A stretch of DNA of 52,853 nucleotides from Chloroflexota bacterium (lineage in GTDB: Bacteria > Chloroflexota > Anaerolineae > J036 > Brachytrichaceae), in contig JAGHYX010000001.1 in NCBI GenBank assembly GCA_017743375.1, forward strand, positions 1 to 52,853. Reading direction: 5' to 3'. The notes beneath the pieces are model-generated. The model ran no database searches, was not told the DNA's origin, and saw only the letters and a list, made by a program, of their open reading frames with translations. The position numbers and the translations under genes were made by a program. Positions 20,661-52,778 of this stretch are shown here, piece after piece (the first letter of the stretch is position 1; every line of letters begins with the position of its first letter).

Positions 20661-20697
20661 CTTCCCCTTCTAGGTCTGAATGACCTAGAAGGGGAAG
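20661..20697. terminator. 16-bp perfect stem-loop between the SBP and permease genes (mRNA stabiliser or attenuator)
   Basis: CTTCCCCTTCTAGGTC-TGAAT-GACCTAGAAGGGGAAG. Confidence 0.75.
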
Positions 20698-20720
20698 GAT
20701 GAACTTTGATCGGGTTAGGA

Positions 20721-22361
20721 TTACTTCAAACCGAGGGATTCGATGTAGATCTGTCGCTGCTTCTCACGGCCCAAGCGCTCAGTGATCGCCTCGAAGTCAG
20801 CCACTGTCGCCTTCAGCGCCTCCTCTGGCGTCTTCTGCTTGGTCACTGCCTCCGAGAGACGGATATCTAGGGCCGTCCAATACTCGAACGTGCCGGGGAT
20901 GCGTAGGTAGGGGAACTGCAACGGTGCATTGAAGTTGTCAAAGTATGCCTTAGTGTAGTCCTTGATGTCCGCTTCCGCCCATCCCGCAGCGAGATAGTCA
21001 TCCAGCTTAGCCGTGCCGTCTGGAGGTAGGAAGTGAGAAGTGCGCCCAGGGTCAACACCATCCCAACCGCGAGCAGCGTAGATGAGCGACTTCGGCTTGG
21101 ACGCCATCAAGGCCAGCAGATAATAAGTCGCTTCTGGGGCCTTGGAGAACTTAGAGATCACGCCGGCCCAGGAGCCGCCTGTGGTGTTGCCCACACGATT
21201 GACCGAGTCAACCTTGATCCACTGGCCCTTCGGGATGCTGTAATACTCGTTCGTGCCCGGCAGCATCGCAGCACCGGTCTTGCCTTTGACCTTGCTGCCT
21301 TCTTGCTGAGCAAGAGCACCCAGGTCACCCCACGTGAAGGTGAGCGCTGCTTCGCCGCGCAGGAAGTGATCCCATGCCTCGCCCAAGCTCCAGCCCATCA
21401 TCGCTTCGGGTCCGAACTGAACCAGATCAACCAAGGTTTCTAGCGCTCTCAGGTGGCCTGGGCTGTCCATGAGCGGCTTCATCGTTTCTGGGTCGAACCA
21501 GAACAGGTTCTTGTTCTCAGGGCCGATCACGAACGGTGCAGCGAACGACATAAAGTGGAACATGCCCTGGCCGCCTACCTTTAGGTGCATTGTCAACCCG
21601 TTGTCTGGCTTCCCATCGCCGTTTAGGTCCTTGCCATTGAAGTATTCCGCAACATCACGGAACTCCTTCCAGGTGGTAGGCACCTTCAAATCGTAACCAT
21701 ACTTCTCTTTGAAGGCGGCTTTGTGGTTGGGATCTTCTAACAAGTCGCGCCGGTAGTACATCACTTGGCCATCATGATCGTTGGCTACCATGTACTTCTT
21801 GCCACCGTAGGTTAGAAGCGAGCGCGGACCTGCTAGAACGTCTTCAAAGTCCCATTGTGGGAAGCGAGGATCGTTGTACCACTGGTCATAGCTCAGGATG
21901 TAATCACCGCCGACCAAATCCCCGAGCCACCATGCGCCTGCGATTGACGCATCGTATTGACCTGTGCCGCTAGTGAGGTCAGTAAGGAGCTTCGGGAAGT
22001 GTTCAGCAAAGGGCACTTCAACGATGTTCAGTTTGGCCCCTGTTGCTTTCTCGAACTCTTCGCGGACCTCATAGAACGGACCTGAGATTGGTCCCTTCTC
22101 GCCAGCAGCGTTGACGATGACAGTAACCGTCTGACCCTTGAATGGACAGTTGTCTCCGCACGGTTGAGCCACTACGGGTGGTTTCAAATCACCAGCCACC
22201 ACCTCTTTTGCCACGTTCTCCTCTTGCCCTAGAGGTGTTGGCGTAGGAGCTGCACCCTGAGGGGCAGCGGGTGCTGCCTGAGGCACCGCACAAGCAGAAA
22301 CGACCAGCGTAGTTGCTAAAACAGTAACATAAATCTTGCTGAACTTCATACCAACCTCCAT
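20721..22361 (-). CDS. Sugar ABC transporter substrate-binding lipoprotein
   Basis: Lipobox VSAC, Pro/Ala linker, [25 protein letters not shown] motifs; ATG 22349 after GGAGG is a likely alternative start. Confidence 0.9.
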
Positions 22362-22445
22362 CTTTACAGTGTTTGCGCGTAGTTATTTGAAGAAATCGCT
22401 CTCAACTTAGATTAACTTTGCCATTTACCACCTCCTTCCCGAGCA

Positions 22446-23234
22446 TTAGATGGAATTTGCTCTAGATAATGCTTCGCTGGGTGACATGCCGTCGTGCACA
22501 ATGCAGCGCAGAGCTTTGATAACAGCTCGCATGTTATCACTCTGCCATATATTACGACCAAACACAATGCCTTTTGATCCTGCCTTTATCGCTTCGTCAG
22601 CAGTGCTTAATACTTCGTGCAAGGTATTCATGCGAGGACCGCCCGCGATAAATACGGGAATGGGACAATTAGCGACTACTGGTTGAAAGCTCTGGACGCT
22701 TCCTGTGTAATACGTTTTGACTAGATCAGCACCATGCTCGAAGGCCAATCGCACAGCAGAGGCGGCAACAAGAGGATCTTTTGGATCTGCAATCCGTGCA
22801 CTGGGGCAAGGCAAGGCTTCAACCATTAAAGCAATGCCTGCGCTCATGCACTCGCGCGCGACGCGTGCAACCAACCGAAAAGTCTGGAGCTCAACAGAGA
22901 GACCCATGAAGAGCATCAGCGCGACGCCCTGCGCGCCCAGTTTGAGAGCATCCTCAACAGAATGCAGTAGATCCCATTCTGTGTATGCAAGCCAGTCTTG
23001 GCTATAGATACTCGGTCCTCCATCAAGTCTGAGAAACACGGGGAGCGTGTGAGGGATAACTGAGCGGAAGTGTTTCAACACCCCAAAAGTAGTAAGGATG
23101 CCATCAATGCCTGACGAGACGATGGTTTCAAGGACGGTTCTTGGATTCTCTAAACCCTGAATCACACCGTGTGTGCGGCCGTGATCCATGGCCACTATCA
23201 GGGATCGCTCTTTATTCAAAGACAGAGGTGTCAT
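22446..23234 (-). CDS. Class I aldolase, DhnA/LsrF family
   Basis: AMDHG, GADLVKTYY (Schiff-base Lys), AGGP, FGRNIWQ motifs. Confidence 0.88.
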   Translation of the reverse strand: MTPLSLNKERSLIVAMDHGRTHGVIQGLENPRTVLETIVSSGIDGILTTFGVLKHFRSVIPHTLPVFLRLDGGPSIYSQDWLAYTEWDLLHSVEDALKLGAQGVALMLFMGLSVELQTFRLVARVARECMSAGIALMVEALPCPSARIADPKDPLVAASAVRLAFEHGADLVKTYYTGSVQSFQPVVANCPIPVFIAGGPRMNTLHEVLSTADEAIKAGSKGIVFGRNIWQSDNMRAVIKALRCIVHDGMSPSEALSRANSI

Positions 23235-37916: not shown

Positions 37917-38533
37917 CAGTCTAATTCTGCCATAATCTGGCGCAGTTGCAATAAAGTACGGTGATACAGCGACTTGATTGCCCCCTCGCTCCGGTTCATG
38001 ATCTGACCGATCTCCGCATTTTGCAATTGTTCCACAAACTTCAACACGAGCAGATGTTGGCGCTCAGGCGGCAGTTTGCGCACCGCCCGCAGCAGCCGCG
38101 CCCGCTCCCGCTCGCGGTCTATCCGCTGTTCGTGGTCGTCCTCGTTGGCTGCGCTGCCCAGCGCATCCACCTCCTCCAGCGGCACCGATGGCCGCCGGCT
38201 GTTGTCGCGATGGAAGTTTGCCACCACGTTGTGCGCGATGCGATACAGCCAGGCGGTGAAGGGCAACCCACGGTCGTCGTAATTGTGAATGTGGCGCAGC
38301 GCGCGGGCGAAGACGCGCGCGGTCAGGTCCTCGGCATCCTCGACGTTGCCTACTCGATAGAACACATAGCGATAGATTGCCGCCACGTGTCGCTCGTAGA
38401 GCACGCCGAAGGCTTGGCGCTCGCGCCTAGCCCGCCGGACCAGTTCCTGGTCGCTGAGCGCCTCCAGCGGTTCGGCAGGAGACGTCGGCTGGCGCGCTTC
38501 CTCAACAACAAGGACGCGGTCGTGGGCGTTCAC
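37916..38533 (-). CDS. ECF sigma-70 factor
   Basis: AEDLTARVF, AWLYRIAHN (region 2); EIGQIMNRSEGAIKS (region 4). Confidence 0.95.
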   Translation of the reverse strand: MNAHDRVLVVEEARQPTSPAEPLEALSDQELVRRARRERQAFGVLYERHVAAIYRYVFYRVGNVEDAEDLTARVFARALRHIHNYDDRGLPFTAWLYRIAHNVVANFHRDNSRRPSVPLEEVDALGSAANEDDHEQRIDRERERARLLRAVRKLPPERQHLLVLKFVEQLQNAEIGQIMNRSEGAIKSLYHRTLLQLRQIMAELD

Positions 38534-38547
38534 GAGTGGCTCAGAAA

Positions 38548-38555
38548 ATTATAAT
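38548..38555. promoter_or_regulatory. Palindromic ATTATAAT giving a TATAAT -10 element on both strands
   Basis: Centred in the 33-bp gap between two divergent genes. Confidence 0.65.
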
Positions 38556-38566
38556 GTTCGCTGCCC

Positions 38567-39508
38567 ATGCTCATCTCGGTGGTCATTCCCAACTGGAATG
38601 GCGCCCACCATCTCCCGACCTGCCTCGGCGCGCTGCGCCGGCAGACCCTCCCCCCGCTCGAAGTGATCCTGGTGGACAATGCCTCCACTGACGACTCCCG
38701 CCGGCTGGTGCGCGCGCACTTCCCGGAGGTCAGGTTGCTGGCGCTGCCGGAGAACCGCCGCTTCGCCGGCGCGTGCAACGCCGGCATCCGCGCCGCCAGC
38801 CAAGCCGCCGAGGCGATCGCCCTCTTGAATAACGACACCGAGGCCGACCCGCGCTGGCTAGAGAACGCGGCGCGCTGCCTGCGGGAACATCCCGACGCCG
38901 GCGCTGTGGCCAGCAAGGTGCGCCTGTTCGACCGACGCGAATACTTGCACAGCGCCGGCGACTTCTACTCGGTGCGCGGCGTGCCGGGCAACCGCGGGGT
39001 CTGGCAGCGCGACGATGGCCGCTTCGACGCAGAGTACGTCTTCGGCGCGTGCGGCGCGGCGGCGATCTACCGGCGCACGATGCTTGAGGCGATCGGCCTG
39101 CTGGACGAGCGCTTCGAGTTCTCCTGTGAGGACGTGGATCTGGCCTGGCGGGCGCAACTGGCCGGCTATCGCTGCGCGCTGGCCCACGACGCGATCGTGT
39201 ATCACAAAGTCAGCGCCACCGGCGGCGGCGTGCTGAACAGCTTCTACGATGGGCGCAACTTCATCTGGCTGCTGGCCAAGGACGTGCCGGCTGAGGTGTG
39301 GCGCGCGTACTGGCCCGCCATCCTGCGCGAGCAATGGCGGATCGCATGGGACGCGCTGCGCGCCTGGCGCGGGCAGGCTGCCCGCAACCGCCTGAAGGGC
39401 CAGCTCGCCGGCCTGCTCGGCCTGCCGCGCATGTTGCGCGCCCGCCGCGAGGTCCAGCGCCGGCGGACGATCTCATCTGAGGCGCTGCGCGCCCTGCTCG
39501 ACCCCTAA
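38567..39508 (+). CDS. Glycosyltransferase family 2
   Basis: SVVIPNWNG, VDNASTD, LLNNDT, EDVDLAWR motifs. Confidence 0.93.
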   Translation: MLISVVIPNWNGAHHLPTCLGALRRQTLPPLEVILVDNASTDDSRRLVRAHFPEVRLLALPENRRFAGACNAGIRAASQAAEAIALLNNDTEADPRWLENAARCLREHPDAGAVASKVRLFDRREYLHSAGDFYSVRGVPGNRGVWQRDDGRFDAEYVFGACGAAAIYRRTMLEAIGLLDERFEFSCEDVDLAWRAQLAGYRCALAHDAIVYHKVSATGGGVLNSFYDGRNFIWLLAKDVPAEVWRAYWPAILREQWRIAWDALRAWRGQAARNRLKGQLAGLLGLPRMLRARREVQRRRTISSEALRALLDP

Positions 39509-40659
39509 CGCTGCGCGCAGGCAGCCAGCACAGTCTCCAAAAAGCGTTGGCTGGCCGCATACACCCCGTCCGGATGGCGGTGCAGGTCGCCGCCGATCAG
39601 CAACACGGTGTCCACGCCATAGAGCGCCACCATGTCGGCCACCCGCCCGATGCTCATCCCGCCGGCCGGCGCGGGGAAGATCGGCTTAAGATGTCCCAGC
39701 GGCCGCCTGGCCGCCTCGGCGATCGCCAGACAATCTTCGCGGCTGAAGGAGAAGCGCCCGCCGAAGTTCGGGAAGATCGTCACGTCCGCGCCGGCCAGCC
39801 GGCCCAGCAACCCAAAGACCACCCCATGCGCCATGCCCGTGTATGGATACGTCACAAAGCTGCCCAGCAGGGCCGGGTGAAACAGGATCGGCAAGCCCAA
39901 CTGCGGGTCATCGGCCAGCGCTTGCATCCGGTCGTAGCCGACGATCCCCGGCGCGACCAAAAAGGCGCCCGCGCCGGCCTGTTTGGCCAGATAGGCGCGC
40001 TCCCATAAGGCCCTGCCCGGCGCGGTCACGTTCGGGGCATATACGCTGCGCCGACCGGTGCGCTGGTTGGCCTCCTGCACCGCCTCGGCACAGCGCTTCA
40101 CCCGCTCCGCATAAGGCGCGAAGACCTGATCGGCCAAACCGTGGTCGTCCTTGATCAGGTCAATGCCGCCGCGCGCGAAGTCGCCGGTCATCTGCGCCAG
40201 GGCTGCCGCCGACAAGCCCATCGGCTTGATCGCTGTGCACAGCAGCGGCCGCCCTGTCACCCCCAGCAATTCGCGCAGGCCGGCGACGCCGAAGCGCGGG
40301 CCGGCGTAGGCCGCTAGCAGGCTGTCCGGCAGCGCCAGGTCGGCCACCTGGATATCCGGCTTCATGCTGGTATTGCCGAAGACCACGTTCAAGAGCTGGG
40401 TGATCTCCAGGCCGGCGGTCTCAATCGCGTAGCTGATTTGGACGTGGAACAGCTGCTCGGCGCGCTGCTCCACCGACTCGATCCGCCCGAAGACGTGGGC
40501 GCGAATATCGTCGTCCGGGACCAGGTCGGCGGGGAATTCAACGGTTTGCTCGATGCAGATCTCCTCGGCCTTGCGCATGACCTCGTCGCGCGCGCCGGCG
40601 ATCTGGTAGGTAACGCGAAAGCGCGCTCCGCTGAGCGCGAGCTTCGTAGGTGCCAGCAT
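39505..40659 (-). CDS. RuBisCO-like protein (form IV, R. rubrum/DeepYkr type); probable 5-methylthioribulose-1-P isomerase
   Basis: IEQTVE, FGN, GPRFG, KPMG, GGIDLIKDDHGLADQ (His in place of the RuBisCO Glu), PAPAGG motifs. Confidence 0.88.
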   Translation of the reverse strand: MLAPTKLALSGARFRVTYQIAGARDEVMRKAEEICIEQTVEFPADLVPDDDIRAHVFGRIESVEQRAEQLFHVQISYAIETAGLEITQLLNVVFGNTSMKPDIQVADLALPDSLLAAYAGPRFGVAGLRELLGVTGRPLLCTAIKPMGLSAAALAQMTGDFARGGIDLIKDDHGLADQVFAPYAERVKRCAEAVQEANQRTGRRSVYAPNVTAPGRALWERAYLAKQAGAGAFLVAPGIVGYDRMQALADDPQLGLPILFHPALLGSFVTYPYTGMAHGVVFGLLGRLAGADVTIFPNFGGRFSFSREDCLAIAEAARRPLGHLKPIFPAPAGGMSIGRVADMVALYGVDTVLLIGGDLHRHPDGVYAASQRFLETVLAACAQR

Positions 40660-40663
40660 GGCG

Positions 40664-41713
40664 TCAGCGCGCCTCCGACCGGCTGCGCACGGCGCGGGCC
40701 AGCCCTTCCTCGTAGGGCGGATAGACCACGCCCGCCTCGGTGATGATCGCGGTGATCAAGTGAGCCGGCGTCACGTCGAAGGCGTAGTTCAGCACCGGCG
40801 ACCCCTCCGGCACCACGCGGGTCGCGCCGACGCAGGCCACCTCGTCTGCGCCGCGCTCTTCGATGGGGATCTCGTCGCCGCTGCGGATGCTCAAGTCAAT
40901 CGTGCTGGTGGGCGCGGCGACGTAAAACGGCACGCCGTGCGCCCTGGCGACCAGCGCCAGGTTATATGTGCCGATCTTATTGGCGGTGTCGCCGTTGGCC
41001 GCGATGCGATCGGCCCCGACGATGCAGAGGTCCACCTTGTGGCGCCGCATCACGAAGCCAGACGCGCCGTCCACGATCACGGTGTGCGGCACACCGAGCT
41101 GATTCAGCTCCCAGGCCGAGAGCTTGGCGCCTTGCAGGCGCGGGCGCGTCTCGTCCAGATAGACGTGGATGCGCTTGCCGATCTCATGCGCGTAGCGGAT
41201 CACCCCCAGCGCTGTGCCATAGTCCACCGTCGCCAGGCTGCCGGTGTTGCAATGGTGGATGATCGTCGCGCCGTCGGGCACGAGGGATTGGCCGTGCTGG
41301 GCGATCCGCTTGTTCACCGCGACGTCCTCTTCGGCGATCGCGTGCGCCTCGCTGAGCACGAGCGCGCGCAGGGCGTCGGCGTCCAGCGCATGGTTGGCGT
41401 GGACCTTGTCCATGACGCGCTGGATGGCCCAAAAGAGGTTCACCGCCGTCGGGCGCGAGCGGCGCAACACCTCGGCGGCCTCTTCTAGCGCGTCCAGCAA
41501 GCGCTCAGCCGGCGCGCGCTGGGCGGCCAGCGCCAACCCGTAGGCCGCCGCGGCGCCGATGGCCGGCGCGCCGCGCACGACCATCGTCCGGATCGCCTCG
41601 GCCACCTCCCGCGCGTCGCCTAAATCCAGGTATATCGTCTCCGCCGGCAGCCGGCGCTGATCGAGCAGGCGCAGCGCGCTGCCCGTCCATTCGAGGGTGC
41701 GAAAGTGGGTCAT
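40664..41713 (-). CDS. mtnA: S-methyl-5-thioribose-1-phosphate isomerase
   Basis: [55 protein letters not shown] motifs. Confidence 0.96.
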
Positions 41714-42933
41714 GCTATCTCCGGTTTGGCATCCGTCATCATCTCGACGGCCTGCGCGATCCGCTCGACGCCCCGCCGCTGCTTGAGCCAGGCGATTGCG
41801 ATGTTCAGGCCCAGGCTCTCGGCCCGCGCGCGGATGGTCACGTCGTCAATCGTCCAGAAGTCGTGCACATGCGCCATGCCGATCAGCCGGCGCATCATCT
41901 CCGCCGCGCCGAAGCCCAGCGCGTCTTGAAGGAGCTGGCGCATGTACTTGTGGCGGAACATGGCCGAGGGCCAGTCGCCGTTGCCGTGCGCTTCCCAGAG
42001 CGCCAGGAACTCTTGTTCAAAGATCGTCCAGGTGCGCGCGATCAGGTCGGCCAGCCAGCGGCGGTAGTCGGCGCGGGTTTGCGCGTCCTTGGCGTGGTAT
42101 TCCTGTGCAGCATACGAGAGCGCCAGGTTGCCCAGATACGACCCGACATCGTGACCGATTGGGCCGAAGAAGGCGAACTCTGGATCCACCACCTTGGTCT
42201 CTTGCTCGTTGAGCATGATCGAGCCGGTGTGCAGATCATTGTGAATGAGGGCCTGGGCGTGGGTCATGTAGCGCTCTTTGAGCAACAGGACCTCCGAGCG
42301 CAGGTCGTCATCGGCATACACCCTGCGCACTTGCGGCTCCAGCAGCTTCGTCCAGCGATTGTTGGGGTGGTCTATGTAAGGCTGGGTGAAGACCAGGTCC
42401 TCCTGGACCTTGCACAGCACTGGATTGATGAACTTGGGCAGCAGCGCTTTCTTATCCCCGGAGCTGAGATAGAGGTCAGATGTGTAGAACAGCGTGCGCG
42501 CCATATATACGCCCATGTGCTGGTCCACGTTTGGATACTTGATCTGCTGCATCAGCCCCTCGCGCATCACCAGGTGACGGTTGAGGTCCTCAAGGACCAG
42601 GATATGGCGCGCGTCGTCGTAGTGATAGACCTTTGGCGTCTGTTCCGGGCAATAGCGCGCCTGGTGCTCGAGGAAGGCGTGTTCGATCCGCGATCGCTCC
42701 GGCGGCATCTTAAAGTCCGGATAGCGCCAAGCGTAGGGCAGCGCCTGCTTGACGATCACGCTCTTGCTCGGATCGTCAGCCGCCGCAACGCGAAAGATCA
42801 GGTTCACGTTGCCCTCCGCAATCTGTCGGCAGGCGAACGAAGAGACGCCGTCGAAGCATTCGGGGAAGATCGGCAGCGTCTTCACGTAGTCCAGAACAGT
42901 TTCCTCGTTCAGGGGAACGATCTCTGTTTCCAT
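41710..42933 (-). CDS. mtnK: S-methyl-5-thioribose kinase
   Basis: [30 protein letters not shown] motifs. Confidence 0.94.
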
Positions 42934-42946
42934 GTCAACTCCAGGT

Positions 42947-44005
42947 TTAACGGCGAGTGGTGTAGTAGCTCAGGCCCAGCGAGACGATCAACACCAGGCC
43001 CTTGATCACGTCTTGGACATACCAGGCGATGTTCAGCATAGTCAGCCCGTTCAGCATCACCCCGACGAACACCGCGCCCAGCACCGTGCCGATCACGTTG
43101 GCGCGGCGGGCGTTGAGCACGGCGAAGCCGAAGAAGGTGGCGGCCACGCCATCCAGCAGATAAGGATCGCCGGACTTCACCGCGCCGGAGCCGATCCGCG
43201 CCGCCAGCACGAGGCCGCCGACGGTCGCCAGCACCGCGCTGATCACATAGGCGATCGTGCGCACCTTATCCACGTCAATGCCGGAGAGGCGCGCCGCCTC
43301 GCTGTTGCCCCCTACGGCATAGAAGATGCGTCCGTAGCGCGTCAGCTCCAGAAAGACGAAGGCGATGATCGCCACCCCTAGCATGATCAGCACGGGGATG
43401 GGGATGCCGCGAAAGCCCTCGCTGGCGAACACAAACCCTTGCCCAAAGCGCAGGAAGTCCGGATGGATTGCCCCCTCGGCGATGGCGCGCGTTGGACTCC
43501 ACGGGTTGGTCATCCCCTTATACACCGCGTCCCCTTTGGTGATGCTCATCTGGAGGCCCTGCACCAGGTAGAGCACGCCCAACGTCGCCAGCAGGTCGGG
43601 GATGCGCAGGCGGATGATCAGAAAGGCGTTGAGCAGGCCGACCAGCGCGCCGACGGCCAGACAGATCAGCACGGCCAGATACCATGGAACCTGCCAGATC
43701 ACCATCAGCGCCGTCGAGAGGATGACGGCCAAACCGGTCACTGCGCCGACGGATACATCGAAGCCGCGCACCACCACGGAGAAGGTGATCCCCAGCGCCA
43801 CGATCGTCAGGATCGAGACAGCGCGCAGGATGTCCAGGATGTTATCCAGCGAGGAGAACGTCTCCGTGCGCAGCGAGAAGAACAACGAGACGAGGATCAA
43901 GGTGAGGATCAGCCCGTAGCGTAGGAAGAAGTCGGAGAGCCACTTGCCGAGGTCAAGGGACGGCCCCTCGCGCTGGGCAAGCGGGGGAAGTTTCATCTTG
44001 AACAT
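42947..44005 (-). CDS. Sugar ABC transporter permease (RbsC type)
   Basis: FDVSVG, LLATLG, YAVGGNSEAARLSGI motifs. Confidence 0.94.
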   Translation of the reverse strand: MFKMKLPPLAQREGPSLDLGKWLSDFFLRYGLILTLILVSLFFSLRTETFSSLDNILDILRAVSILTIVALGITFSVVVRGFDVSVGAVTGLAVILSTALMVIWQVPWYLAVLICLAVGALVGLLNAFLIIRLRIPDLLATLGVLYLVQGLQMSITKGDAVYKGMTNPWSPTRAIAEGAIHPDFLRFGQGFVFASEGFRGIPIPVLIMLGVAIIAFVFLELTRYGRIFYAVGGNSEAARLSGIDVDKVRTIAYVISAVLATVGGLVLAARIGSGAVKSGDPYLLDGVAATFFGFAVLNARRANVIGTVLGAVFVGVMLNGLTMLNIAWYVQDVIKGLVLIVSLGLSYYTTRR

Positions 44006-44010
44006 CGTGT

Positions 44011-45522
44011 TCAGCTCCTCACATGGACTGTGCTGGCGGCAAGCCGCATTACCGCTTGGCGGTCGGCCTGCTCAGCCTCGAACTCGCCGACGAACTGCCC
44101 ATCGCGCATGACCAACACGCGGTCGGCTACGCCCAGCACTTCATCTATGTCCGACGAAGCGAAGATCACCGCCGCGCTGCGGGCCAGCTCGCGCATGATC
44201 GCGTATAGTTCCCGCTTGGCGCCCACGTCAATCCCCTGCGTCGCCTCGTCGAACAGGATCACCGCCGGCGCGCCGAACAGCCACTTGCCAACCACCACCT
44301 TCTGCTGGTTGCCGCCGCTGAGGTGTTTGGCCGGCAGGTCGGGCTTGCGCGGGACCAACTTTAGGCGATCCATCAATTGCAACACGCGCGCGTATTCCTT
44401 GCTGGGCCGCATGAAACCAAGCCGGCTGAAATCGCGGATGAACGGCAAAGTGACGTTCATTCGGACGGGCTCCTCGACCAGCAGGCCCAGGTTGCGCCGG
44501 TCCTCCGGGATCAAATACACACCATGTCGGACGGCGTCTTTGGGCAGGTGGAAGCGCACTGGCTTGCCGTTGAGGTAGATCTCGCCGCGGTCGGGTTGCT
44601 CGCAGCCGAAGAGCACGCGGAGCAGCTCGGTCTTCCCTGCGCCGGTCAGGCCGGCGATCCCCAGCACTTCGCCTTGATAAACGTCAAAAGAGATGTCCTT
44701 CAAGCGCGCCCCCCAGCACAGGCCGCGCACCTCCATCACCAGGCGCCGTTCAGCAGCCGGCTGGCGCTTGGGGTATAGCTCGCCCGGCGGCGCGCCCAGC
44801 ATGGCCTCAACGCCTTTGGCGATGTCAAACGCCTCGCCGACGAAGTGGGCCACCTTTTGCCCGTTGCGCAGCACGGTCACTTCATCGGCGATCTCCTGGA
44901 TCTCGGCTAGGCGATGAGAGACGTAGAGAAAGGCGACGCCGCGCTGTTTCAGCTCGCGCATGATCTCGAACAACCGCTCGGCATCGCGGATGCTCAGCGC
45001 CGCCGTCGGCTCATCGAGGATCAAGAACGGCGCACGGCGCGACACGGCCCGCGCGATCACCAAAAGCTGCTTCTGCGGCAGCGAAAGGTCGGCGGCCTGG
45101 GCGCGCACGTCTATCTCTAGGCCCAGCTCATCCACGATCTGCTGCGCCTGGCGATACAGCGCTTGTTTGCGGATGAAGAGGCCGCTTCCGGGCGCAGCCA
45201 GTTGCTCGATCAAAAGGTTCTCCGCCGCGCTCAGGTATGGCACCAGCGTCGTGTCCACCTCCTGATGGACGACTTCGATGCCGGCGCGGAAGGCATCCGC
45301 CGGTCGGCGGATAGCGACTGGACGGCCGTTGATCTCGATCCGTCCCTCGTATGCGTCGTAATAGCCAGTCAGGATTTTGATCAGGGTGCTCTTGCCGGCC
45401 CCGTTCGCGCCGATCAGGGCGTGGACGCTGCCGCCATGCAGCGCCAAGTCCACTCCATCCAGCGCGACGACGCCCGGAAAGGTCTTGCGCAAGCCGGTTG
45501 CTCGCAGCGATGTCATCGCCAT
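44011..45522 (-). CDS. Sugar ABC transporter ATP-binding protein (RbsA type, two NBDs)
   Basis: GANGAGKST, LDEPT, PEDR, LSGGNQQK motifs. Confidence 0.95.
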   Translation of the reverse strand: MAMTSLRATGLRKTFPGVVALDGVDLALHGGSVHALIGANGAGKSTLIKILTGYYDAYEGRIEINGRPVAIRRPADAFRAGIEVVHQEVDTTLVPYLSAAENLLIEQLAAPGSGLFIRKQALYRQAQQIVDELGLEIDVRAQAADLSLPQKQLLVIARAVSRRAPFLILDEPTAALSIRDAERLFEIMRELKQRGVAFLYVSHRLAEIQEIADEVTVLRNGQKVAHFVGEAFDIAKGVEAMLGAPPGELYPKRQPAAERRLVMEVRGLCWGARLKDISFDVYQGEVLGIAGLTGAGKTELLRVLFGCEQPDRGEIYLNGKPVRFHLPKDAVRHGVYLIPEDRRNLGLLVEEPVRMNVTLPFIRDFSRLGFMRPSKEYARVLQLMDRLKLVPRKPDLPAKHLSGGNQQKVVVGKWLFGAPAVILFDEATQGIDVGAKRELYAIMRELARSAAVIFASSDIDEVLGVADRVLVMRDGQFVGEFEAEQADRQAVMRLAASTVHVRS

Positions 45523-45531
45523 CGGTGAGGT

Positions 45532-45564
45532 GCCTGGGGGTGAAGCCGAAGCTCACCCCCAGGC
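45532..45564. terminator. 12-bp stem-loop just after the SBP stop codon (mRNA stabiliser)
   Basis: GCCTGGGGGTGA-N9-TCACCCCCAGGC. Confidence 0.65.
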
Positions 45565-45575
45565 GAAGCCGGCGT

Positions 45576-47753
45576 TTATTTGCCGGCCAGCGTGCACATC
45601 CAGGGGAACCAGTTGAGCGAGGACTCACCCAGGGCCGGCATCGCCTTGATCAGCTCCTCCATGTTCGTCACCTTGTTCTCCAGCAGAAACTCCCGCGTGA
45701 TCAACTGCGGCGGCACCAGCAGATACTTCTCCACCTTCTCCCCTGCCACCAGCGCCGCTGCCGTCCGCACCGCCAGCCGGCCCACGCTATACGAGTCCGT
45801 CGCCACCGTTGCCACCCACGGACTCCCCTCCGCCGTCATCATCTGAATGTCCTCGTTCGTGATGTCCACCGAATACACCCGATACTGCGCCGCCTTCCCC
45901 GCCTGCGTGATCGCGCGCACCGCCCCCTTCGCAAACTCGTTCCACATCGCCACCACTACGTTCGCCTGCGGATACTCCCGCATCGCCGCCTCCATCCGCG
46001 TCTGCGTGTCCGCCGCCGTGTTGTCCGTCACCGCGCCGATCTTCACCACCTCCTTCAGCCCCGGATAGCGCCACTTGAAGTCCTGCCACAGCCGGTCGCG
46101 CTTGTCCAGCGGCGCAAACCCGCCCACGTTCACATACACCACGTCCGCTCGCCCGGCATGGTCCATCGCCACCTTCTTCGACAGCATGAACCCGATCAGC
46201 ATGTCGTCCTGCTCGATCTCAGGCACGTTCGGGTTGTCCACCACCAGGTCGAAGCTGACCACCTTGATGCCCTTCGCCAGCGCCTCTTCGATCTTCGGCA
46301 TCAGCGGGTCGGGCCGGCCGTGGTCCACGATGATCGCGTCCACCCCCTGCTGGATGTAGTTCTCCATCGCGGTGACCATCTTCGCCATGTCCCCGCGCGC
46401 GGTGGCCTCCAGCAGCTCCACCCCCAGCTCTTTGGCCATCGACTGCGCGCCGGCCAGGTAGCGCTCGAAGAATGACCCTTCGCCCACCTCGCGCACCAGC
46501 GCGATCCGCACCTTCTTGTTCGCGTCGCCGAACGGCGCGGGGATCTTGTCGCTCTTGACCTGACAGATCGGCTCGGCGCTTGCTTCCTGAGCGCCGGCAG
46601 GCGCGGCCGCCACCTGCGGCATGCTGTAGCCGTTGCGGGCGAGCAGCTTCTCCATCCAGGGGAACCAGTTGAGCGAGGACTCACCCAGGGCCGGCATCGC
46701 CTTGATCAGCTCCTCCATGTTCGTCACCTTGTTCTCCAGCAGAAACTCCCGCGTGATCAACTGCGGCGGCACCAGCAGATACTTCTCCACCTTCTCCCCT
46801 GCCACCAGCGCCGCTGCCGTCCGCACCGCCAGCCGGCCCACGCTATACGAGTCCGTCGCCACCGTTGCCACCCACGGACTCCCCTCCGCCGTCATCATCT
46901 GAATGTCCTCGTTCGTGATGTCCACCGAATACACCCGATACTGCGCCGCCTTCCCCGCCTGCGTGATCGCGCGCACCGCCCCCTTCGCAAACTCGTTCCA
47001 CATCGCCACCACTACGTTCGCCTGCGGATACTCCCGCATCGCCGCCTCCATCCGCGTCTGCGTGTCCGCCGCCGTGTTGTCCGTCACCGCGCCGATCTTC
47101 ACCACCTCCTTCAGCCCCGGATAGCGCCACTTGAAGTCCTGCCACAGCCGGTCGCGCTTGTCCAGCGGCGCAAACCCGCCCACGTTCACATACACCACGT
47201 CCGCTCGCCCGGCATGGTCCATCGCCACCTTCTTCGACAGCATGAACCCGATCAGCATGTCGTCCTGCTCGATCTCAGGCACGTTCGGGTTGTCCACCAC
47301 CAGGTCGAAGCTGACCACCTTGATGCCCTTCGCCAGCGCCTCTTCGATCTTCGGCATCAGCGGGTCGGGCCGGCCGTGGTCCACGATGATCGCGTCCACC
47401 CCCTGCTGGATGTAGTTCTCCATCGCGGTGACCATCTTCGCCATGTCCCCGCGCGCGGTGGCCTCCAGCAGCTCCACCCCCAGCTCTTTGGCCATCGACT
47501 GCGCGCCGGCCAGGTAGCGCTCGAAGAATGACCCTTCGCCCACCTCGCGCACCAGCGCGATCCGCACCTTCTTATTCGGATCAGCGAAGGGGGCGGGAAT
47601 GCCCTCTGGGGTCAACGCCGGGGCTTGTTCTTTAGGGGCCGGCGTTGCCTGCTGCGCCGCCGGCGCTTGTGGCGTGGCCTGCGGCGCCGCACAACTCACC
47701 AACACAAACGACGTCGCGACAAGCGCGTGAACGAGAAAACGACTTGGTTTCAT
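45576..47753 (-). CDS. Substrate-binding lipoprotein with two tandem RbsB-type domains
   Basis: Lipobox LVSC; two identical ~307-aa periplasmic binding domains (GVDAIIVDHG, VVSFD, VYSVD). Confidence 0.92.
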   Translation of the reverse strand: MKPSRFLVHALVATSFVLVSCAAPQATPQAPAAQQATPAPKEQAPALTPEGIPAPFADPNKKVRIALVREVGEGSFFERYLAGAQSMAKELGVELLEATARGDMAKMVTAMENYIQQGVDAIIVDHGRPDPLMPKIEEALAKGIKVVSFDLVVDNPNVPEIEQDDMLIGFMLSKKVAMDHAGRADVVYVNVGGFAPLDKRDRLWQDFKWRYPGLKEVVKIGAVTDNTAADTQTRMEAAMREYPQANVVVAMWNEFAKGAVRAITQAGKAAQYRVYSVDITNEDIQMMTAEGSPWVATVATDSYSVGRLAVRTAAALVAGEKVEKYLLVPPQLITREFLLENKVTNMEELIKAMPALGESSLNWFPWMEKLLARNGYSMPQVAAAPAGAQEASAEPICQVKSDKIPAPFGDANKKVRIALVREVGEGSFFERYLAGAQSMAKELGVELLEATARGDMAKMVTAMENYIQQGVDAIIVDHGRPDPLMPKIEEALAKGIKVVSFDLVVDNPNVPEIEQDDMLIGFMLSKKVAMDHAGRADVVYVNVGGFAPLDKRDRLWQDFKWRYPGLKEVVKIGAVTDNTAADTQTRMEAAMREYPQANVVVAMWNEFAKGAVRAITQAGKAAQYRVYSVDITNEDIQMMTAEGSPWVATVATDSYSVGRLAVRTAAALVAGEKVEKYLLVPPQLITREFLLENKVTNMEELIKAMPALGESSLNWFPWMCTLAGK
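45597..46517. repeat. 921-bp intragenic direct repeat, copy 1
   Basis: Identical by eye to 46653-47573 (offset 1056); shadow ORFs of the two copies also match. Confidence 0.95.
46653..47573. repeat. 921-bp intragenic direct repeat, copy 2
   Basis: Identical to 45597-46517. Confidence 0.95.
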
Positions 47754-47771
47754 CTATATCCTCCTTAAGAC

Positions 47772-48197
47772 TTAATTAGTTTCCGGAACAGCCGACGCTG
47801 TTCGTGAAGCCTGGTCATGCGCGTATTTCTCCTTCGGCGGGATGACGCAAATAAAGCCCAGGGGTTGATCGGGAGGCGCCTTGAACTGATGGACCTCATT
47901 GGGCGCGATGAATATCGCATCGCCCACGCCGATCGGATGCCAGGTGTCGCCGAGCAGCACCTGCCCACCGCCCTGTACGATGATCACCCCATGGGGGTGC
48001 GGATGACTCTCGTAGGACGAATGCCCGCCCGGAGGGATGGTGAAGTAGCGGATGATGAAGTCCTGGGCGCCCTCGTCGCGCCCGATCAGGATGCGGCGCA
48101 CGGCGCCCGGCGCAGCGCCGCCTTCATACACGTGCGCGCGCACCGTGCTGTAGTCCCACGTGCCGGTTGGGTTGAGCTGGCGATGAATCACTCCCAT
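47772..48197 (-). CDS. Cupin-domain protein; candidate 1-methylthioxylulose-5-P methylsulfurylase
   Basis: RYF..PGGHSSYESHPHPH, HQF and PLGFIC (Cys) motifs; RBS GAGAGGAG before ATG 48197; operonic with the RLP. Confidence 0.75.
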   Translation of the reverse strand: MGVIHRQLNPTGTWDYSTVRAHVYEGGAAPGAVRRILIGRDEGAQDFIIRYFTIPPGGHSSYESHPHPHGVIIVQGGGQVLLGDTWHPIGVGDAIFIAPNEVHQFKAPPDQPLGFICVIPPKEKYAHDQASRTASAVPETN

Positions 48198-48229
48198 AAG
48201 CAATTGCTCCTCTCTTTTGGCTTGGCAGC

Positions 48230-49561
48230 TCACAACAGCAGCCCGGGCCGCTCCAGCCCGCGCTGTAGGTCGCTCAAAAAGCGCCCCACCTGCGCCCCGT
48301 CCACAACGCGGTGGTCGGCGCTCACCGTGAACGTGGCCATGGGGGCGATCCGCGTCTGCCCATCGTCAGCGGGCACGACGCGCTTCGTCGCGCGCCCGAC
48401 GGCCAGGATGGCAGCCTGGGGCGGGTTGACGATCGCCGTGAAGCGGTCCACGGCAAACATGCCCAGGTTGGAGATGGTGAACGTGCCGCCTTGCACATCG
48501 GCCAGCGTCAGCCGGCCCTCGCGCCCGCGCTGCGCCACATCGTTCAGCCGCGCGGCCACCTCCAGCAGGCTCAGCCGATCGGCGTGGTGAATCACCGGCA
48601 CGATCAACCCCTCATCTACGGTCACAGCCACGCCGATGTTGATGTCGCTCCACTCCACGATCATCTCGTCCTCAAAACCGGCGTTTAGCGCCGGATGCCC
48701 TCGCAGCGCCCAGGCGCAGGCCTTGACCAGCAGCGCGGTCAACGTCACCTTCGGTTGCCCTTCCGCTTGCGTCGCGCGCCAGTCCTCGACGATCGCCAGC
48801 GCGCGGCTCATGTCCACGTCAACGCTGACGTTGAACTGTGGGGCCTCGCGCGTGCTCTGGCTCATCCGCTGCGCGATCGTGCGGCGCATGCCGCTCAGCG
48901 GGATGCGCTGGCGCACCGCCGGCCCGCGCTGCGGCTCCGCTGTGCTCGGCGACGCAGGGGCAGGCGCAGCTTGGATCGCGACCTGCGCTTCTGCGACGCG
49001 CGCCACGTCGGCGGACTGGATGCGCCCTCCCGGCCCGCTGCCGCTGACTTGCGCTAAAGCGACGCCCAGCTCCCCTGCCAGCCGGCGCGCAGCGGGCACA
49101 GCGGCCACCTTGTCACCGCTCACTTCAGCCCGGCCGGCGCTGCGCTGTTTGGCGATGAAGGCCTCGACGTCTTGGCGGGTGATCTGGCCGTCGCGGCCTG
49201 TGCCCGGCACTTGGCTCAGATCAATCCCGTGCTCGTCAGCCAGCTTCTGCGCGATCGGCGTCGCCTTGACGGCCCGTTCGGCGGGCGCGTTCGCCGGCGA
49301 AGGGGTGGGCGCGATGGCCTCCCCGGCGGCAGCGAGATAAGCGATCGGTTGGCCGATCGGCACGCGCGCGCCCGGCTCGGCCAGCACCTGCGCCAGCACC
49401 CCATCGGCGGGCGACTCGACCTCCATGGTGATCTTGTCGGTCTCCACCTCCAGGATGGCCTCGCCCTTGTGCACGGGGTCGCCGACCTGCTTCAGCCAGC
49501 GAACGATCGTCCCGCTCTCCTGGGCCATCTCGAACTTGGGCATGATGATGGGGATCGCCAT
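48230..49561 (-). CDS. Dihydrolipoamide acyltransferase E2 (AcoC-like)
   Basis: Lipoyl motif ETDK, two peripheral subunit-binding domains, TISNLG, catalytic DHRVVDG. Confidence 0.93.
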   Translation of the reverse strand: MAIPIIMPKFEMAQESGTIVRWLKQVGDPVHKGEAILEVETDKITMEVESPADGVLAQVLAEPGARVPIGQPIAYLAAAGEAIAPTPSPANAPAERAVKATPIAQKLADEHGIDLSQVPGTGRDGQITRQDVEAFIAKQRSAGRAEVSGDKVAAVPAARRLAGELGVALAQVSGSGPGGRIQSADVARVAEAQVAIQAAPAPASPSTAEPQRGPAVRQRIPLSGMRRTIAQRMSQSTREAPQFNVSVDVDMSRALAIVEDWRATQAEGQPKVTLTALLVKACAWALRGHPALNAGFEDEMIVEWSDINIGVAVTVDEGLIVPVIHHADRLSLLEVAARLNDVAQRGREGRLTLADVQGGTFTISNLGMFAVDRFTAIVNPPQAAILAVGRATKRVVPADDGQTRIAPMATFTVSADHRVVDGAQVGRFLSDLQRGLERPGLLL

Positions 49562-49576
49562 GGCTGGCTCCTTTCT

Positions 49577-51700
49577 CTAGACTTGCAAGCGCGCCAGCTT
49601 GCGCGCAGCGGCGGCGATGTCCTCAGCTTGTGGCGTCGCTGCCCGTTCCAGCGTCCGGTTGTAGGGGATCGGCACGTCGGCTCCGCCCAGGCGCAGGATA
49701 GGCGCTTCCAGATAAGCGAACGCCTCGCTTTGGGCGATCGCAGCGGCGATCTCCGCGCCGTAGCCGCCGATCAGCGGCGCCTCGTGCGCCACCAGCAGCC
49801 GGCCCGTCTTCTTCACCGATTGCACGATCGTGTGCAGGTCATAAGGCTTCAGCGTGCGCAGGTCAATCACCTCGCACTCGATGCCTTCGCCGGCCAATTG
49901 CGCTGCTGCCTCCAGCGCGCGCGGGACGGTGATGCCGGCCCCGACGATGGTCACGTGCTGCCCGGCGCGCCGCACAGCGGCCTTGCCGATCGGCACAATG
50001 TAGGGCAGCTCCGGCACAGGGCCTTTTGCCTTGTAGAGCAACTTGTTCTCGACGAAGATGATCGGGTTCTGGTCGGCGATGGCGGCCAGCAGCAGCCCCT
50101 TCATGTCGTAGGGCGTGCTGGGCATGACGACCTTCAGGCCGGGCACGTTGACGAACCAAGACTCCAAGCTCTCGCTGTGCTGCGCGGCCGCGCCGGTGCC
50201 GCTGCCGGCTGGCAGGCGCACCACCATCTGACAGATCGTGCGCCCGCCGAACATGTAGCGCACCTTGGCCGCCTGGAGCACAAGCTGTTCCATGGCCAGC
50301 GTCACGAAGTCCTGGAACTGGAACTCGGCGATCGGCACCAGGCCGGTCATGCCGGCGCCGAAGGCCACGCCGGCGATCGCGTTCTCGCTGATTGGGGTAT
50401 CGCGCACGCGCTCGGGCCCAAAGCGGTCATACAGCCCCAGCGTGACGCCGAACGCGCCACCGTACTTGCCGATGTCCTCGCCAATCAAGATGACGTTTGG
50501 TGCGGCCTCCATCGCTTGGGCCATCGCCTCGCGGATCGCCTCGCTGCCGGTCAGCTCGCGTTCGCCCGGGGGCGGCTCGCTGCCGGCATGCCGAGCGAAA
50601 GTGCGCGTGAACCAAGTGGGCAATGGGCGACCGTTGAACGGCGCGGGCGACCCCAGCATGATGCCGCGCATCGCCGGGTCGGTGCGGTTGGCCGGCTCCT
50701 CGTAATACACCTCGTTGAGCAACTCCGAGGGATCTGGCTCCGGCGAGGCGTCGGCAAACGCCACCGCTTCTTCGATGGCCTTGACCGCTCGGTTGCGGAT
50801 GTCATCGGCCTGGGCGCGGGTGAGCAGGCCGTGTTCGATCAACAGGGCCTCGAAGCGGGCGATCGGGTCACGGGCTTGCCAGGCCTGCACCTCCTCTTTT
50901 GAGCGATAGACCTGCTTATCGCTGCGCGAGTGGCCCTTGTAGCGATAGGTCACCACCTCGATCAGCGAAGGCCCCTGGCCGGCGCGGGCGCGGTCAACAG
51001 CGGCCTTGGCCGCCTGATACACGGCCAGCACGTCCATCCCGTCCACCTGTTCACCCGGCATGGCGTAGGCCGCGGCGCGGTCGGCCACCCGCACCGGGAT
51101 GGCCTGCTTGGCCGGCATGCTCATCGCATACTGGTTGTTCTCGCAGACGAAGACCACCGGCAGCTTCCAGATCGACGCCATGTTGAGCGTCTCGTGAAAG
51201 TTGCCGTTGCTCACCGCGCCATCGCCGAAGAAGCACATCACCACGCGGCCGGTCTTGAGCAGATGCGCGCTGAGCGCCGCGCCGACCGCGCTGCCCATGC
51301 CGCCAGCGACGATGCCATTCGCGCCCAGGTTGCCCAGCTTGACGTCGGCCATGTGCATGCTGCCGCCGAAGCCACGGCAGACGCCGGTGCGCTTGGCCAA
51401 CAGCTCGGCCATCATCTCGCGCACGTCCTGGCCGATGGCGATGGCGTGGCCATGGCCGCGGTGCGTGCTGGTGATCTGATCGCCGGGTTGTAGCGCGGTG
51501 ATGCACCCCACGGCCGAGGCCTCCTGCCCGATGTAGAGGTGCATAGTGCCGTGCACCTTGCCAGCGAAGTATTGCTGCTCAGCCGCTTCTTCAAAAGCGC
51601 GGATGAGCTGCATGGTGTAGAGCATCTTCAACAGCGCCTCTGGGGATAACGCGGACAGCGCTGCGGATGGAGGGGTTGTCTCAAGGGTATGAGTGGTCAT
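49577..51700 (-). CDS. Fused TPP-dependent dehydrogenase E1 alpha-beta (acetoin/2-oxoacid dehydrogenase family)
   Basis: [35 protein letters not shown] (alpha); DTPISE, AAQHS, VIDLRTL (beta). Confidence 0.93.
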
Positions 51701-51725
51701 GGCGTGAAGTGTGTAATGACTTAGT

Positions 51726-52703
51726 TTAGCCCGTGTTAACCGCGCGCAGGATGCCGGCGGCGACGACCTCGTCGGTCACCAACGCATTCACCAGACCGCT
51801 TCGCAGCGCGCCGAGGACAGGTTCGATCTTGGCCTCGCCGGCGGCCACACCTAAGCGAATGGGAATGCGCGTCAGCGTCGAAGCATCCACGCTCATCACC
51901 CGCCGGCTGATCGGCAGCTCGAGGATGCGACCGTTGATGTCAAAGGGGATCGCGCACACGTCGCCCACCGCGCCGGCCTGGCGCTGCATCTCCAGCGACT
52001 GGCGCGGGCGAAGAAAGCCAGCCTTCACCAGCGCCGAATGGTCGGGATGGACCGAGCCGATCCCGACCAAGGCAAGCTGTGCGCGGCGCAGCAGCGCGAA
52101 TACCTCGCGGATGTGCGCGTCGCGCATCAGGCCGTCGCGGGTTTGCTCATCGCCCACCAACAACGGCGCGGGCAGCGTGGCGTACTTGGCGCTGAAGGCG
52201 CGCGCGATGCGGCGCGTCAACTCGGCCCCGTCTATCTCCGGCAGCCGCGTGCCCAACGAGCCGATCATCTGGACGACATACATGCCGCTGCGCGGCTGTG
52301 GGCGCAGCGCGCCAGCGACCGCGGCGAGCGCGCTGCCCCACGAGACGCCGATCGTCATCTCATCTCGAATCAGTTCCGAGAGCAAGCCGGCGGCCAGCGT
52401 CCCCACCCTGCCGAGCGCATCGCTCTGAAAGACGCGACCGCTCTCCAACACGCGCACGTATTCCAGCCCAAAGCTGGCCTGTAGGTCGCGCTCCAAGGAG
52501 ACAGCGCGGCGCAGCGGGTGATGAACGCGGATCTCGACGATGCCCTGATCGCGGGCCTCGCTCAGCAACCGAGAGATCATCGAGCGCGAGTAGTTCGTCT
52601 TGCGGGCGATCTGTTCTTGGTTCAGCCCATGGACAAAATACAACTCGGCGATCTGGGCAAGCATAGCAAGTCTGCTCTCAGGCACAGCATGCGTCGTGGC
52701 CAT
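51726..52703 (-). CDS. SorC/DeoR-family sugar-binding transcriptional regulator
   Basis: N-terminal HTH ([22 protein letters not shown]), GVSWG, GIG, GAVGD, LVTDE motifs; start ATG 52703. Confidence 0.93.
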
Positions 52704-52720: not shown

Positions 52721-52778
52721 AGCCTAATGGCGCGCGTGCGATTGTCAAGCAAATGTGAAGGGCGTTCACAAATGTGAA
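52721..52778 (-). promoter_or_regulatory. Promoter and putative operator of the RLP operon
   Basis: TTGACA (52748-52743), 16 nt, TAGGCT (52726-52721); adjacent TGTGAA-N5-TTCACA (52754-52770) and AAATGTGAA repeated at 52751 and 52770. Confidence 0.7.

Follow-up and report, generated by a model that had tools for sequence, protein, structure and literature searches.

We analyzed a 52,853-nt window from a hot-spring Chloroflexota bacterium (contig JAGHYX010000001.1) and on balance favor the following reading of a ten-gene operon within it: methylthioribose (MTR) is imported and converted to DXP (1-deoxy-D-xylulose 5-phosphate), which an E1/E2 complex splits into acetyl-CoA and GAP. The importer of the operon likely takes up 5-methylthioribose, and probably 5-deoxyribose as well. 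MtnK, MtnA and a RuBisCO-like protein (RLP) would carry MTR onward, and a cupin would probably strip methanethiol, leaving DXP. The ThDP of E1 would then attack C2, with cleavage of the C2-C3 bond and release of GAP; the resulting hydroxyethyl-ThDP would reductively acetylate the lipoyl arm of E2, which would hand the acetyl group to CoA, and the only E3 of the genome, encoded elsewhere, would reoxidise the arm (NADH). We infer all enzymatic steps given here, including the role of the cupin, the use of 5-deoxyribulose-1-P by the RLP and the substrate of E1.

The operon and its methylthioribose module

Ten contiguous open reading frames occupy positions 52703-39505 of the minus strand, on which each gene with coordinates below also lies. 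Their order is SorC, E1, E2, cupin, solute-binding protein (SBP), ATPase, permease, mtnK, mtnA and RLP, with successive gaps of 25, 15, 32, 18, 53, 5, 13, -4 and 4 nt, and we confirmed that the operon is real. Contigs from independent DNA runs bridge SBP-cupin-E2 (47544-48741) and E2-E1 (48712-51720), so the gene order is not an assembly artefact; further contigs span 38500-42777 and 42782-45626, and the whole block lies on no single piece. The first gene encodes a SorC/DeoR-type sugar-binding regulator (51726..52703, 325 aa; PF04198). Its start (ATG, 52703) is kept in all seven aligned genomes, along with an upstream minus-strand element (52743..52778) that we consider a candidate SorC operator and -35: a near-palindrome TTCACA-N2-TGTGAA at 52778-52765, a second half-site, and TTGACA at 52748-52743. 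A consensus promoter and terminator scan returned counts near shuffle levels (1 versus 1.6; 12 versus 7.7, sd 2.4) and no separate minus-strand consensus promoter between cupin and SBP. In both stretches every bin is covered by RNA-library contigs, and so is the plus-strand glycosyltransferase gene that adjoins and converges with the RLP gene; because this gene is covered too, and DNA may be present, the coverage is no proof of transcription or co-transcription.

The sequence-only reading had proposed import of MTR or 5-deoxyribose, and the solute-binding lipoprotein (45576..47753, 725 aa) supports MTR, with 75% identity (E 3e-157) to PDB 4RY8, titled as the 5-methylthioribose transporter SBP TLET_1677. 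The protein consists of two tandem near-identical domains, an internal duplication (1056-nt spacing, 99%) overlooked earlier; DNA depth is about doubled across the repeat, and back-joints are present. A single-sequence model of the SBP was poor (pLDDT 50) and served solely for retrieving PDB titles. Family profile matches identify the CUT2 ABC ATPase (44011..45522, 503 aa) and permease (42947..44005, 352 aa).

Downstream lie the methylthioribose kinase MtnK (41710..42933, 407 aa; TIGR01767, 475 against a cut-off of 275) and the MTR-1-P isomerase MtnA (40664..41713, 349 aa), which exceeds the cut-offs of both TIGR00512 (430 against 279) and PRK05720. The RLP (39505..40659, 384 aa) is a predicted MTRu-1-P 1,3-isomerase. 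It had been proposed to be shunt-like, and its DeepYkr type was borne out: it carries the KDDH motif at K170, scores under the MtnW cut-offs, and finds its best PDB match in 3qfw, which we take to be R. palustris RLP1 (E 2e-86, versus 5e-55 for MtnW). DeepYkr RLPs are described as converting MTRu-1-P to MTXu-5-P, from which a cupin then forms DXP (PMC5893883). Within the block there are no universal methionine salvage genes mtnB, mtnX, mtnC or mtnD, no E3 and no aldolase, class II included; three PF00596 genes lie elsewhere in the genome.

The place that E1 holds here is taken by a split transketolase at 57 of 80 close RLP loci; 4 loci have a cupin, and the two never occur together. The closest operon (L031; SBP 69%, MtnK 65%) carries the transketolase between mtnA and the RLP gene, which in the window are 4 nt apart, and none was found in the genome. 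Because the module misses the transketolase carried by its relatives, what the RLP makes would otherwise have nowhere to go. Assembly of the operon seems recent: an older SorC-E1-E2-cupin cassette is followed by an MTR-import/MtnK/MtnA/RLP module, which would have arrived without the split transketolase usual in its kind.

DXP, in turn, lacks a biosynthetic sink, because the genome (97% complete) has HMG-CoA reductase and uses the mevalonate route, with no Dxr, IspG, ThiG, ThiC or DXR-II and no Dxs over cut-off, and IspG is absent from six of six related genomes.

The E1/E2 complex and its clade

E1 (49577..51700, 707 aa) is a fused alpha-beta ThDP enzyme (PF00676/PF02779/PF02780) predicted from its tree position and motifs to cleave DXP or a ketose phosphate. 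It scores under the PDH alpha cut-offs (381 against 394 for TIGR03182, 289 against 411 for TIGR03181) and lacks the PDH loop GHSMxD, its own loop being GHSRSD, with Arg in the Met position. The form HS[KR][SN]D is found in all 89 rows inside the E1 clade and in none of the 32 outside it, and His50, Thr52 and Ser194 are specific to the clade as well. Together, the loop and these three residues may constitute a polar and basic set suited to phosphate. The tree was built with a quick method, excluding near-duplicates and any row whose match was partial or contained a stop, and gave the clade an SH-aLRT of 88. E1 also contains STHRGHG, which we take to be an AcoA motif, and lacks GHFEGD, presumably the AcoA E1 alpha loop signature, which is present in outgroup rows. 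E2 (48230..49561, 443 aa) is a dihydrolipoamide acyltransferase with lipoyl (PF00364), E3-binding (PF02817) and 2-oxoacid_dh (PF00198) domains, the lipoyl motif ETDKITM at 40 and DHRVVDG at 416. Assignment of E2 to the alpha/beta-hydrolase AcoC type was ruled out (108 versus a cut-off of 307). The genome holds two other E1 sets and, outside the operon, one E3 above cut-off.

The neighborhoods of clade members are informative regarding substrate. Sugar enzymes or PTS genes occur in 35 of 47 long E1-clade loci, whereas the eight outgroup loci yielded only Zn-dehydrogenase, in three. A DXR-II-family gene (PF21135) is found in 13 of the 47 long metagenome E1-clade loci and immediately precedes the E1 gene in 29 or more of the best 40 plasmid records, which come mostly from related Rhizobiales. 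Its product matches PDB 3UPY (E 2e-100), the DXR-II of B. abortus (PMC3847144). A candidate function for this SAF-domain partner in handling 1,5-anhydroglucitol or 1-deoxyfructose-6-P was dropped, as the protein belongs to the DXR-II family. At two loci (L135 and L160), an RLP and a type-I cupin adjoin an E1/E2 whose E1 is of a different subclade. DXR-II, xylulokinase and RLP with type-I cupin represent routes that can yield DXP; these neighbors suggest that E1 acts on DXP or something closely analogous. The earlier proposal of DXP cleavage by an acetoin dehydrogenase-like complex survives in part: the neighbors and the missing sink favor it, while E1 is AcoA-like at one motif only.

With confidence a little short of even, we extend this to an undescribed, widespread family of lipoyl-dependent "DXP dehydrogenase (acetyl-transferring)" that may end several catabolic routes and make DXP a catabolic hub. 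These routes would be methylthioribose via RLP, methylerythritol via reversed DXR-II, and deoxyxylulose via xylulokinase. Retention of E1/E2 beside an RLP in other genomes, a corollary of the sequence-only reading, holds up weakly: an RLP adjoins E1 in two of the 47 long E1-clade loci, both near-identical relatives, and E1 adjoins none of the 80 closest RLP loci, many of which have <10 kb of upstream sequence.

The cupin and alternative substrates

The Cupin_2 protein (47772..48197, 141 aa) has an uncertain role as a methylsulfurylase by sequence comparison. Its Cys117 aligns with a Cys of Rru_A2000 and it retains the metal His residues; the type-I C-terminal tail is missing, the match to Rru_A2000 is E 2e-17 versus 6e-44 for a true type-I control cupin, and the protein is placed outside the Rru_A2000 methylsulfurylase clade (support 100/99). 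Relatives reside in PTS, Zn-dehydrogenase and transketolase clusters in which, among the query set used, sulfur genes are absent; at one further locus (L104), a cupin 62% identical to that of the window lies directly upstream of an RLP. Identification as an Rru_A2000-type methylsulfurylase is uncertain, given the off-clade placement and the company of E1/E2 beside xylulokinase in sister genomes. Regarding a thiol acceptor, the genome search found neither GshB nor BshC and one GCS2-family gene. Given the missing glutathione synthetase and the lack of a block-encoded E3, we speculate that after DXP cleavage the dihydrolipoyl arm itself might reduce a cupin methylthio-disulfide, an idea far less than half as probable as the DXP dehydrogenase family suggested above; such coupling would give a redox-neutral conversion of MTXu-5-P and CoA to methanethiol, acetyl-CoA and GAP.

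The off-clade position of the cupin raises the possibility that the methylthio-ketose itself is the substrate of E1. We regard it as unlikely that E1 acts directly on 1-methylthio-xylulose-5-P (MTXu-5-P), the probable mode of the split transketolase at other loci. The products would be GAP together with either (methylthio)acetyl-CoA and NADH or, upon phosphoketolase-like loss of methanethiol, acetyl-CoA with no net redox change, and the cupin would have another job, such as ketose-phosphate isomerase or epimerase. Of 31 genomes whose RLP loci are of the transketolase type, one was found to have a full-length type-I cupin, so the ThDP enzymes at those loci probably use the methylthio-ketose directly; consistent with this are the mutual exclusion of transketolase and cupin, the window cupin's departure from type I and the clusters of its relatives, and the lack of GshB. 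However, the DXR-II neighbors indicate DXP for the E1 clade, L135 and L160 retain a type-I cupin next to their RLP and E1/E2, and the window cupin keeps Cys117 and the metal His residues and has its counterpart upstream of the L104 RLP.

The preferred DXP reading must also be weighed against the distribution of the cassette. We found the exact gene set in this genome only, and partly in G004; the MTR module matches two of 12 genus genomes (the sequence of three of the 12 being incomplete in the comparison). In sister genomes, this E1 (87-92%) and cupin (85-95%) belong to polyol/xylulokinase clusters that lack both RLP and MtnK, with a xylulokinase over cut-off adjoining the SorC-E1-E2-cupin cassette, so xylulose-5-P fits that context too. 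It is conceivable, if quite improbable, that the operon joins two modules of separate pathways, in which SorC-E1-E2-cupin would serve ketose phosphates produced by xylulokinase (such as xylulose-5-P, cleaved to glycolyl-CoA and GAP) and the MTR module sulfur salvage or uptake. The sister pairing, the lineage-specific junction and an 83%-identical xylB retained on another contig of this genome agree with such a division; the 18-nt cupin-SBP gap, the absence of a separate consensus promoter, the MTR module's lack of its relatives' transketolase, and RLP, cupin and E1/E2 together in a second lineage argue against it. Searching the class for MtnK (matches in 29 of 401 genomes; 15 regions read) revealed no second MtnK-RLP-E1/E2 operon; the L280 region has a clade-like E1/E2, accompanied by rpe and xylB, on the other strand from mtnK.

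Mutants of the PDH E1 AceE are reported to bypass Dxs (PMC10663253). Despite that precedent, the AcoA-like motif and PDH as nearest curated models, E1/E2 is very unlikely to be a conventional dehydrogenase for acetoin, pyruvate or branched-chain 2-oxoacids or to run in the DXP-forming direction, given the sub-cut-off scores, the clade-specific loop, the two other E1 sets, the sugar-gene neighborhoods and the absent DXP sink.

Comparison with known systems

In the MTA-isoprenoid shunt of Rhodospirillum rubrum and Rhodopseudomonas palustris, MtnP and MtnA act with a DeepYkr RLP and a cupin MTXu-5-P methylsulfurylase. The operon shares MtnA, a KDDH DeepYkr-type RLP, a Cys-bearing cupin and the predicted intermediates MTXu-5-P and DXP. 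Unlike the shunt, it has MtnK and an MTR importer, its host lacks the MEP pathway and GshB, its cupin is off the type-I clade, and its E1/E2 is predicted to destroy DXP rather than supply isoprenoids. With the acetoin dehydrogenase system (AcoABCL) it has in common an alpha/beta E1 bearing STHRGHG, a lipoyl E2 and predicted acyloin cleavage to acetyl-CoA and an aldehyde. Here, however, alpha and beta are fused, the loop is GHSRSD and not the GHFEGD of AcoA-like outgroups, there is a SorC regulator and a sugar-phosphate context, the operon encodes no E3, and the predicted substrate is a phosphorylated C5 compound.

The DHAP shunt (MtnK, MtnA, Ald2) of ExPEC E. coli is described as using MTR and 5-deoxyribose for carbon and energy (PMC10986504), a use via MtnK and MtnA that we also predict here; the operon block is without aldolase, and RLP and ThDP cleavage would give GAP and acetyl-CoA, not DHAP and an aldehyde. 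RLP and split transketolase operons (for example L031 and L100; Thermotoga lettingae, with the TLET_1677 SBP) share the importer family, MtnK, MtnA, RLP and a ThDP ketolase, but lipoyl-dependent E1/E2 and a cupin replace the transketolase here. A literature search, with most subscription journals outside its scope, found no role for the RLP-linked split transketolase and no description of an RLP paired with either E1/E2 or transketolase, nor of DXP being cleaved to acetyl-CoA.

If correct, our reading would add oxidative ketose-phosphate cleavage to the reactions of 2-oxoacid/acyloin dehydrogenase complexes, with DXP broken down and not spent on biosynthesis. In hot-spring mats, the MTA-isoprenoid shunt would come to supply carbon and energy and might be a source of methanethiol. 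The reading would likewise account for the functional DXR-II genes reported in bacteria without the MEP pathway (PMC3847144). Conversion of a pentose to acetyl-CoA and GAP without CO2 loss would be of interest for metabolic engineering, and the claim is directly testable, since all proteins can be expressed and assayed.

AI-2 catabolism (LsrR/LsrK/LsrG/LsrF) likewise employs a SorC regulator, a CUT2 importer and a kinase, and takes a SAM-derived sugar to acetyl-CoA and a triose phosphate by thiolase cleavage. The operon shares the regulator family, importer and kinase, but its substrate differs and its ThDP/lipoyl cleavage step is non-homologous.

The ten-gene block and its input half

The ten contiguous minus-strand genes of the sequence-only reading were confirmed at 52703-39505. 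Intergenic gaps run from -4 to 53 nt, and the families are those that the reading assigned: a SorC regulator, fused E1 alpha-beta, E2, cupin, solute-binding protein (SBP), ABC ATPase, permease, mtnK, mtnA and a RuBisCO-like protein (RLP). A convergent plus-strand glycosyltransferase marks the downstream limit, and a consensus scan detected no minus-strand promoter anywhere inside the block. Upstream of SorC, 7/7 aligned genomes retain a near-palindrome, a second half-site and a TTGACA, as well as the start codon (ATG) at 52703. Contigs of independent hot-spring DNA runs span the SBP-cupin-E2 and E2-E1 junctions and cover the lower half of the block in two pieces. The SBP lipoprotein (45576-47753) consists of two near-identical domains, duplicated in tandem and in frame (spacing 1056 nt, 99% DNA identity); roughly doubled depth and back-joints in independent runs back this duplication.

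A single SBP domain matches PDB 4RY8, titled 5-methylthioribose transporter solute binding protein TLET_1677 (E 3e-157, 75% identity). MtnK and MtnA both score above curated cut-offs; their E. coli counterparts are described as acting on methylthioribose (MTR) and 5-deoxyribose alike (PMC10986504). The DeepYkr-type RLP, whose closest named record is labeled Candidatus Roseilinea sp. (99%), carries KDDH at K170, best matches 3qfw (E 2e-86) and falls below MtnW cut-offs. DeepYkr RLPs are reported to convert MTRu-1-P to MTXu-5-P and MTRu-5-P at 3:1, after which a cupin and glutathione yield 1-deoxyxylulose-5-phosphate (DXP) (PMC5893883, PMC4334135); the thiol is expected to differ among organisms (PMC6302742). 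Several genomes of the class (L273, L274, L275, L276) carry a pair of divergent mtnK genes, and in many cases two mtnA, within ~7 kb, together with sugar ABC transporters.

The route we consider most likely, at slightly better than even odds and with all its enzymatic steps inferred, begins with MTR or 5-deoxyribose, which MtnK and MtnA would convert to the ribulose-1-phosphate and the RLP to the xylulose-5-phosphate analogue. This would give DXP directly from 5-deoxyribose, or via the cupin from MTR, and E1/E2/E3 would cleave DXP to acetyl-CoA, glyceraldehyde-3-phosphate and NADH. One E3 above cut-off is encoded on another contig, and the genome holds two further E1 sets. In the literature searched we found no description of an E1/E2-RLP pathway, in agreement with the sequence-only reading, and the reaction predicted at the operon's center is probably undescribed.

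Fate of the RLP product

Among the best 80 RLP loci, a split transketolase occurs at 57, its C-terminal half directly upstream of the RLP in 53; four have a cupin, none has both, and 19 have neither (6 of these being too short upstream to tell). A ThDP ketolase therefore normally follows RLPs of this type. The closest whole operon, L031 (SBP 69%, permease 70%, MtnK 65%, MtnA 60%, RLP 56%), places its transketolase between mtnA and RLP, where the window has a 4-nt gap. The window genome contains no split transketolase gene, and E1/E2 is the sole ThDP enzyme in the block.

Adjacency of split transketolase and DeepYkr RLP extends across many phyla (L031:7969-11134, L068:8043-11122 and 55 more loci). 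Of 31 genomes sampled from these 57 loci, one had a full-length type-I cupin (Rru_A2000 methylsulfurylase clade). This arrangement probably represents a cupin-free fate of MTXu-5-P, for which we found no description in the literature searched; a Thermotoga lettingae RLP operon with transketolase has reportedly been noted before. Sister genomes (L021-L027, L030) encode a separate RLP, 55-60% identical, that has ABC transporters, an FGGY kinase and DhaK/DhaL-type genes as neighbors and no mtnK or mtnA; this setting suggests that the RLP clade has additional ketose 1-phosphate substrates.

The window cupin is a putative methylsulfurylase. Cys117 is kept, but the type-I tail is absent, the match to Rru_A2000 is weaker than that of a control type-I cupin (E 2e-17 vs 6e-44), and the protein groups outside the type-I clade. 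Relatives at ~40-50% identity lie with Zn-dehydrogenase and transketolase in 4 of 13 regions examined, or stand alone; at L104, a 62%-identical cupin directly precedes an RLP. GshB and BshC were not found in the window genome. Given this placement, these contexts and the two enzymes not found, the predicted conversion of MTXu-5-P to DXP stands at about even odds in this organism. E1 may instead cleave MTXu-5-P directly, which we regard as distinctly less probable than DXP cleavage. Taken together, these two readings make some kind of E1-dependent breakdown of the RLP product quite probable. Separately, window-type cupins occur in a cupin-Zn-dehydrogenase-transketolase cluster in one family of the phylum (L328, L329, L331, L334), with a PTS-EI-type gene upstream in three.

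A further reading, a little less probable again, is that the E1/E2 cassette and the MTR module are uncoupled. E1/E2 recurs beside the RLP only rarely: E1 is at 0/80 best RLP loci, and RLP is in just 2/47 long E1-clade loci. Among 12 genus genomes, 3 of them comparable in part only, the SorC-E1-E2 cassette was matched in 9, and the MTR module in the window genome alone and partly in its relative G004. Sister E1s (87-92%) and cupins (85-95%) lie among ABC transporters, FGGY kinase, Zn-dehydrogenase and xylulokinase above cut-off; one sister has xylB directly after E2 and no cupin.

The E1 clade and its neighbors

In a tree built by a quick method from 121 alpha sequences, the window E1 falls within an 89-row clade (SH-aLRT 88). 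HS[KR][SN]D is found in 89/89 clade rows vs 0/32 outside rows (2 outside rows unread); PDH has HSMSD at this loop. His50, Thr52 and Ser194 are likewise clade-specific, with Phe replacing Thr52 in human PDH. We infer that these residues may accommodate a phosphate and widen the channel. An ordinary E1/E2 substrate seems improbable. PDH E1 mutants are reported to bypass Dxs (PMC10663253), which suggests a scaffold able to handle DXP chemistry.

Neighbors were counted in the 47 of 76 clade metagenome loci that reach 8 kb. Sugar enzymes or PTS genes occur in 35, SorC in 30, a SAF-domain oxidoreductase in 13, FGGY kinase in 6 and E3 in 1; five have none of the queried families. The eight outgroup E1 loci showed Zn-dehydrogenase in three and nothing else queried. 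Two loci (L135/L160) combine RLP, type-I cupin and E1/E2, with an E1 from another subclade. Xylulokinase can phosphorylate 1-deoxyxylulose, and DXR-II run backwards gives DXP. The SAF-domain protein matches PF21135 DRL_cat and PDB 3UPL/3UPY (E 2e-100), the latter being B. abortus DXR-II; active DXR-II is reported from bacteria lacking the MEP pathway (PMC3847144). By record coordinates (best 45 of 51 SAF records), a DXR-II-family gene lies directly upstream of E1 in at least 29 of the best 40 plasmid E1 records, mostly kin. A Ligilactobacillus DXR-II/PTS cluster has Fsa and transketolase in place of E1/E2; three other SAF records examined have neither E1 nor transketolase. DXR-II, xylulokinase and RLP with type-I cupin thus represent three upstream routes that point to DXP.

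At L150, L230, L231, L233, L235, L236 and L292, a DXR-II-family gene accompanies a glucitol-type PTS (at L231, an ABC transporter), plus E1/E2 or Fsa and transketolase; these loci are candidates for a methylerythritol catabolic route.

DXP in the window genome

The window genome (97% complete) yielded no Dxr, no Dxs at or above cut-off and no IspG, the last also not found in 5 relatives; ThiG, ThiC and DXR-II gave no tblastn match, and HMG-CoA reductase is present. Any DXP formed would need disposal. Single tblastn queries for ThiC, ThiG, ThiD and LipB were likewise unmatched, and thiamine dependence with an alternative lipoylation route is possible. Elsewhere in the window, 17288-23234 has lower GC (0.46-0.57 vs ~0.65). 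Its genes for a class I aldolase, CUT1 ABC transporter and FGGY kinase make up another sugar catabolic cluster, which may have been acquired.
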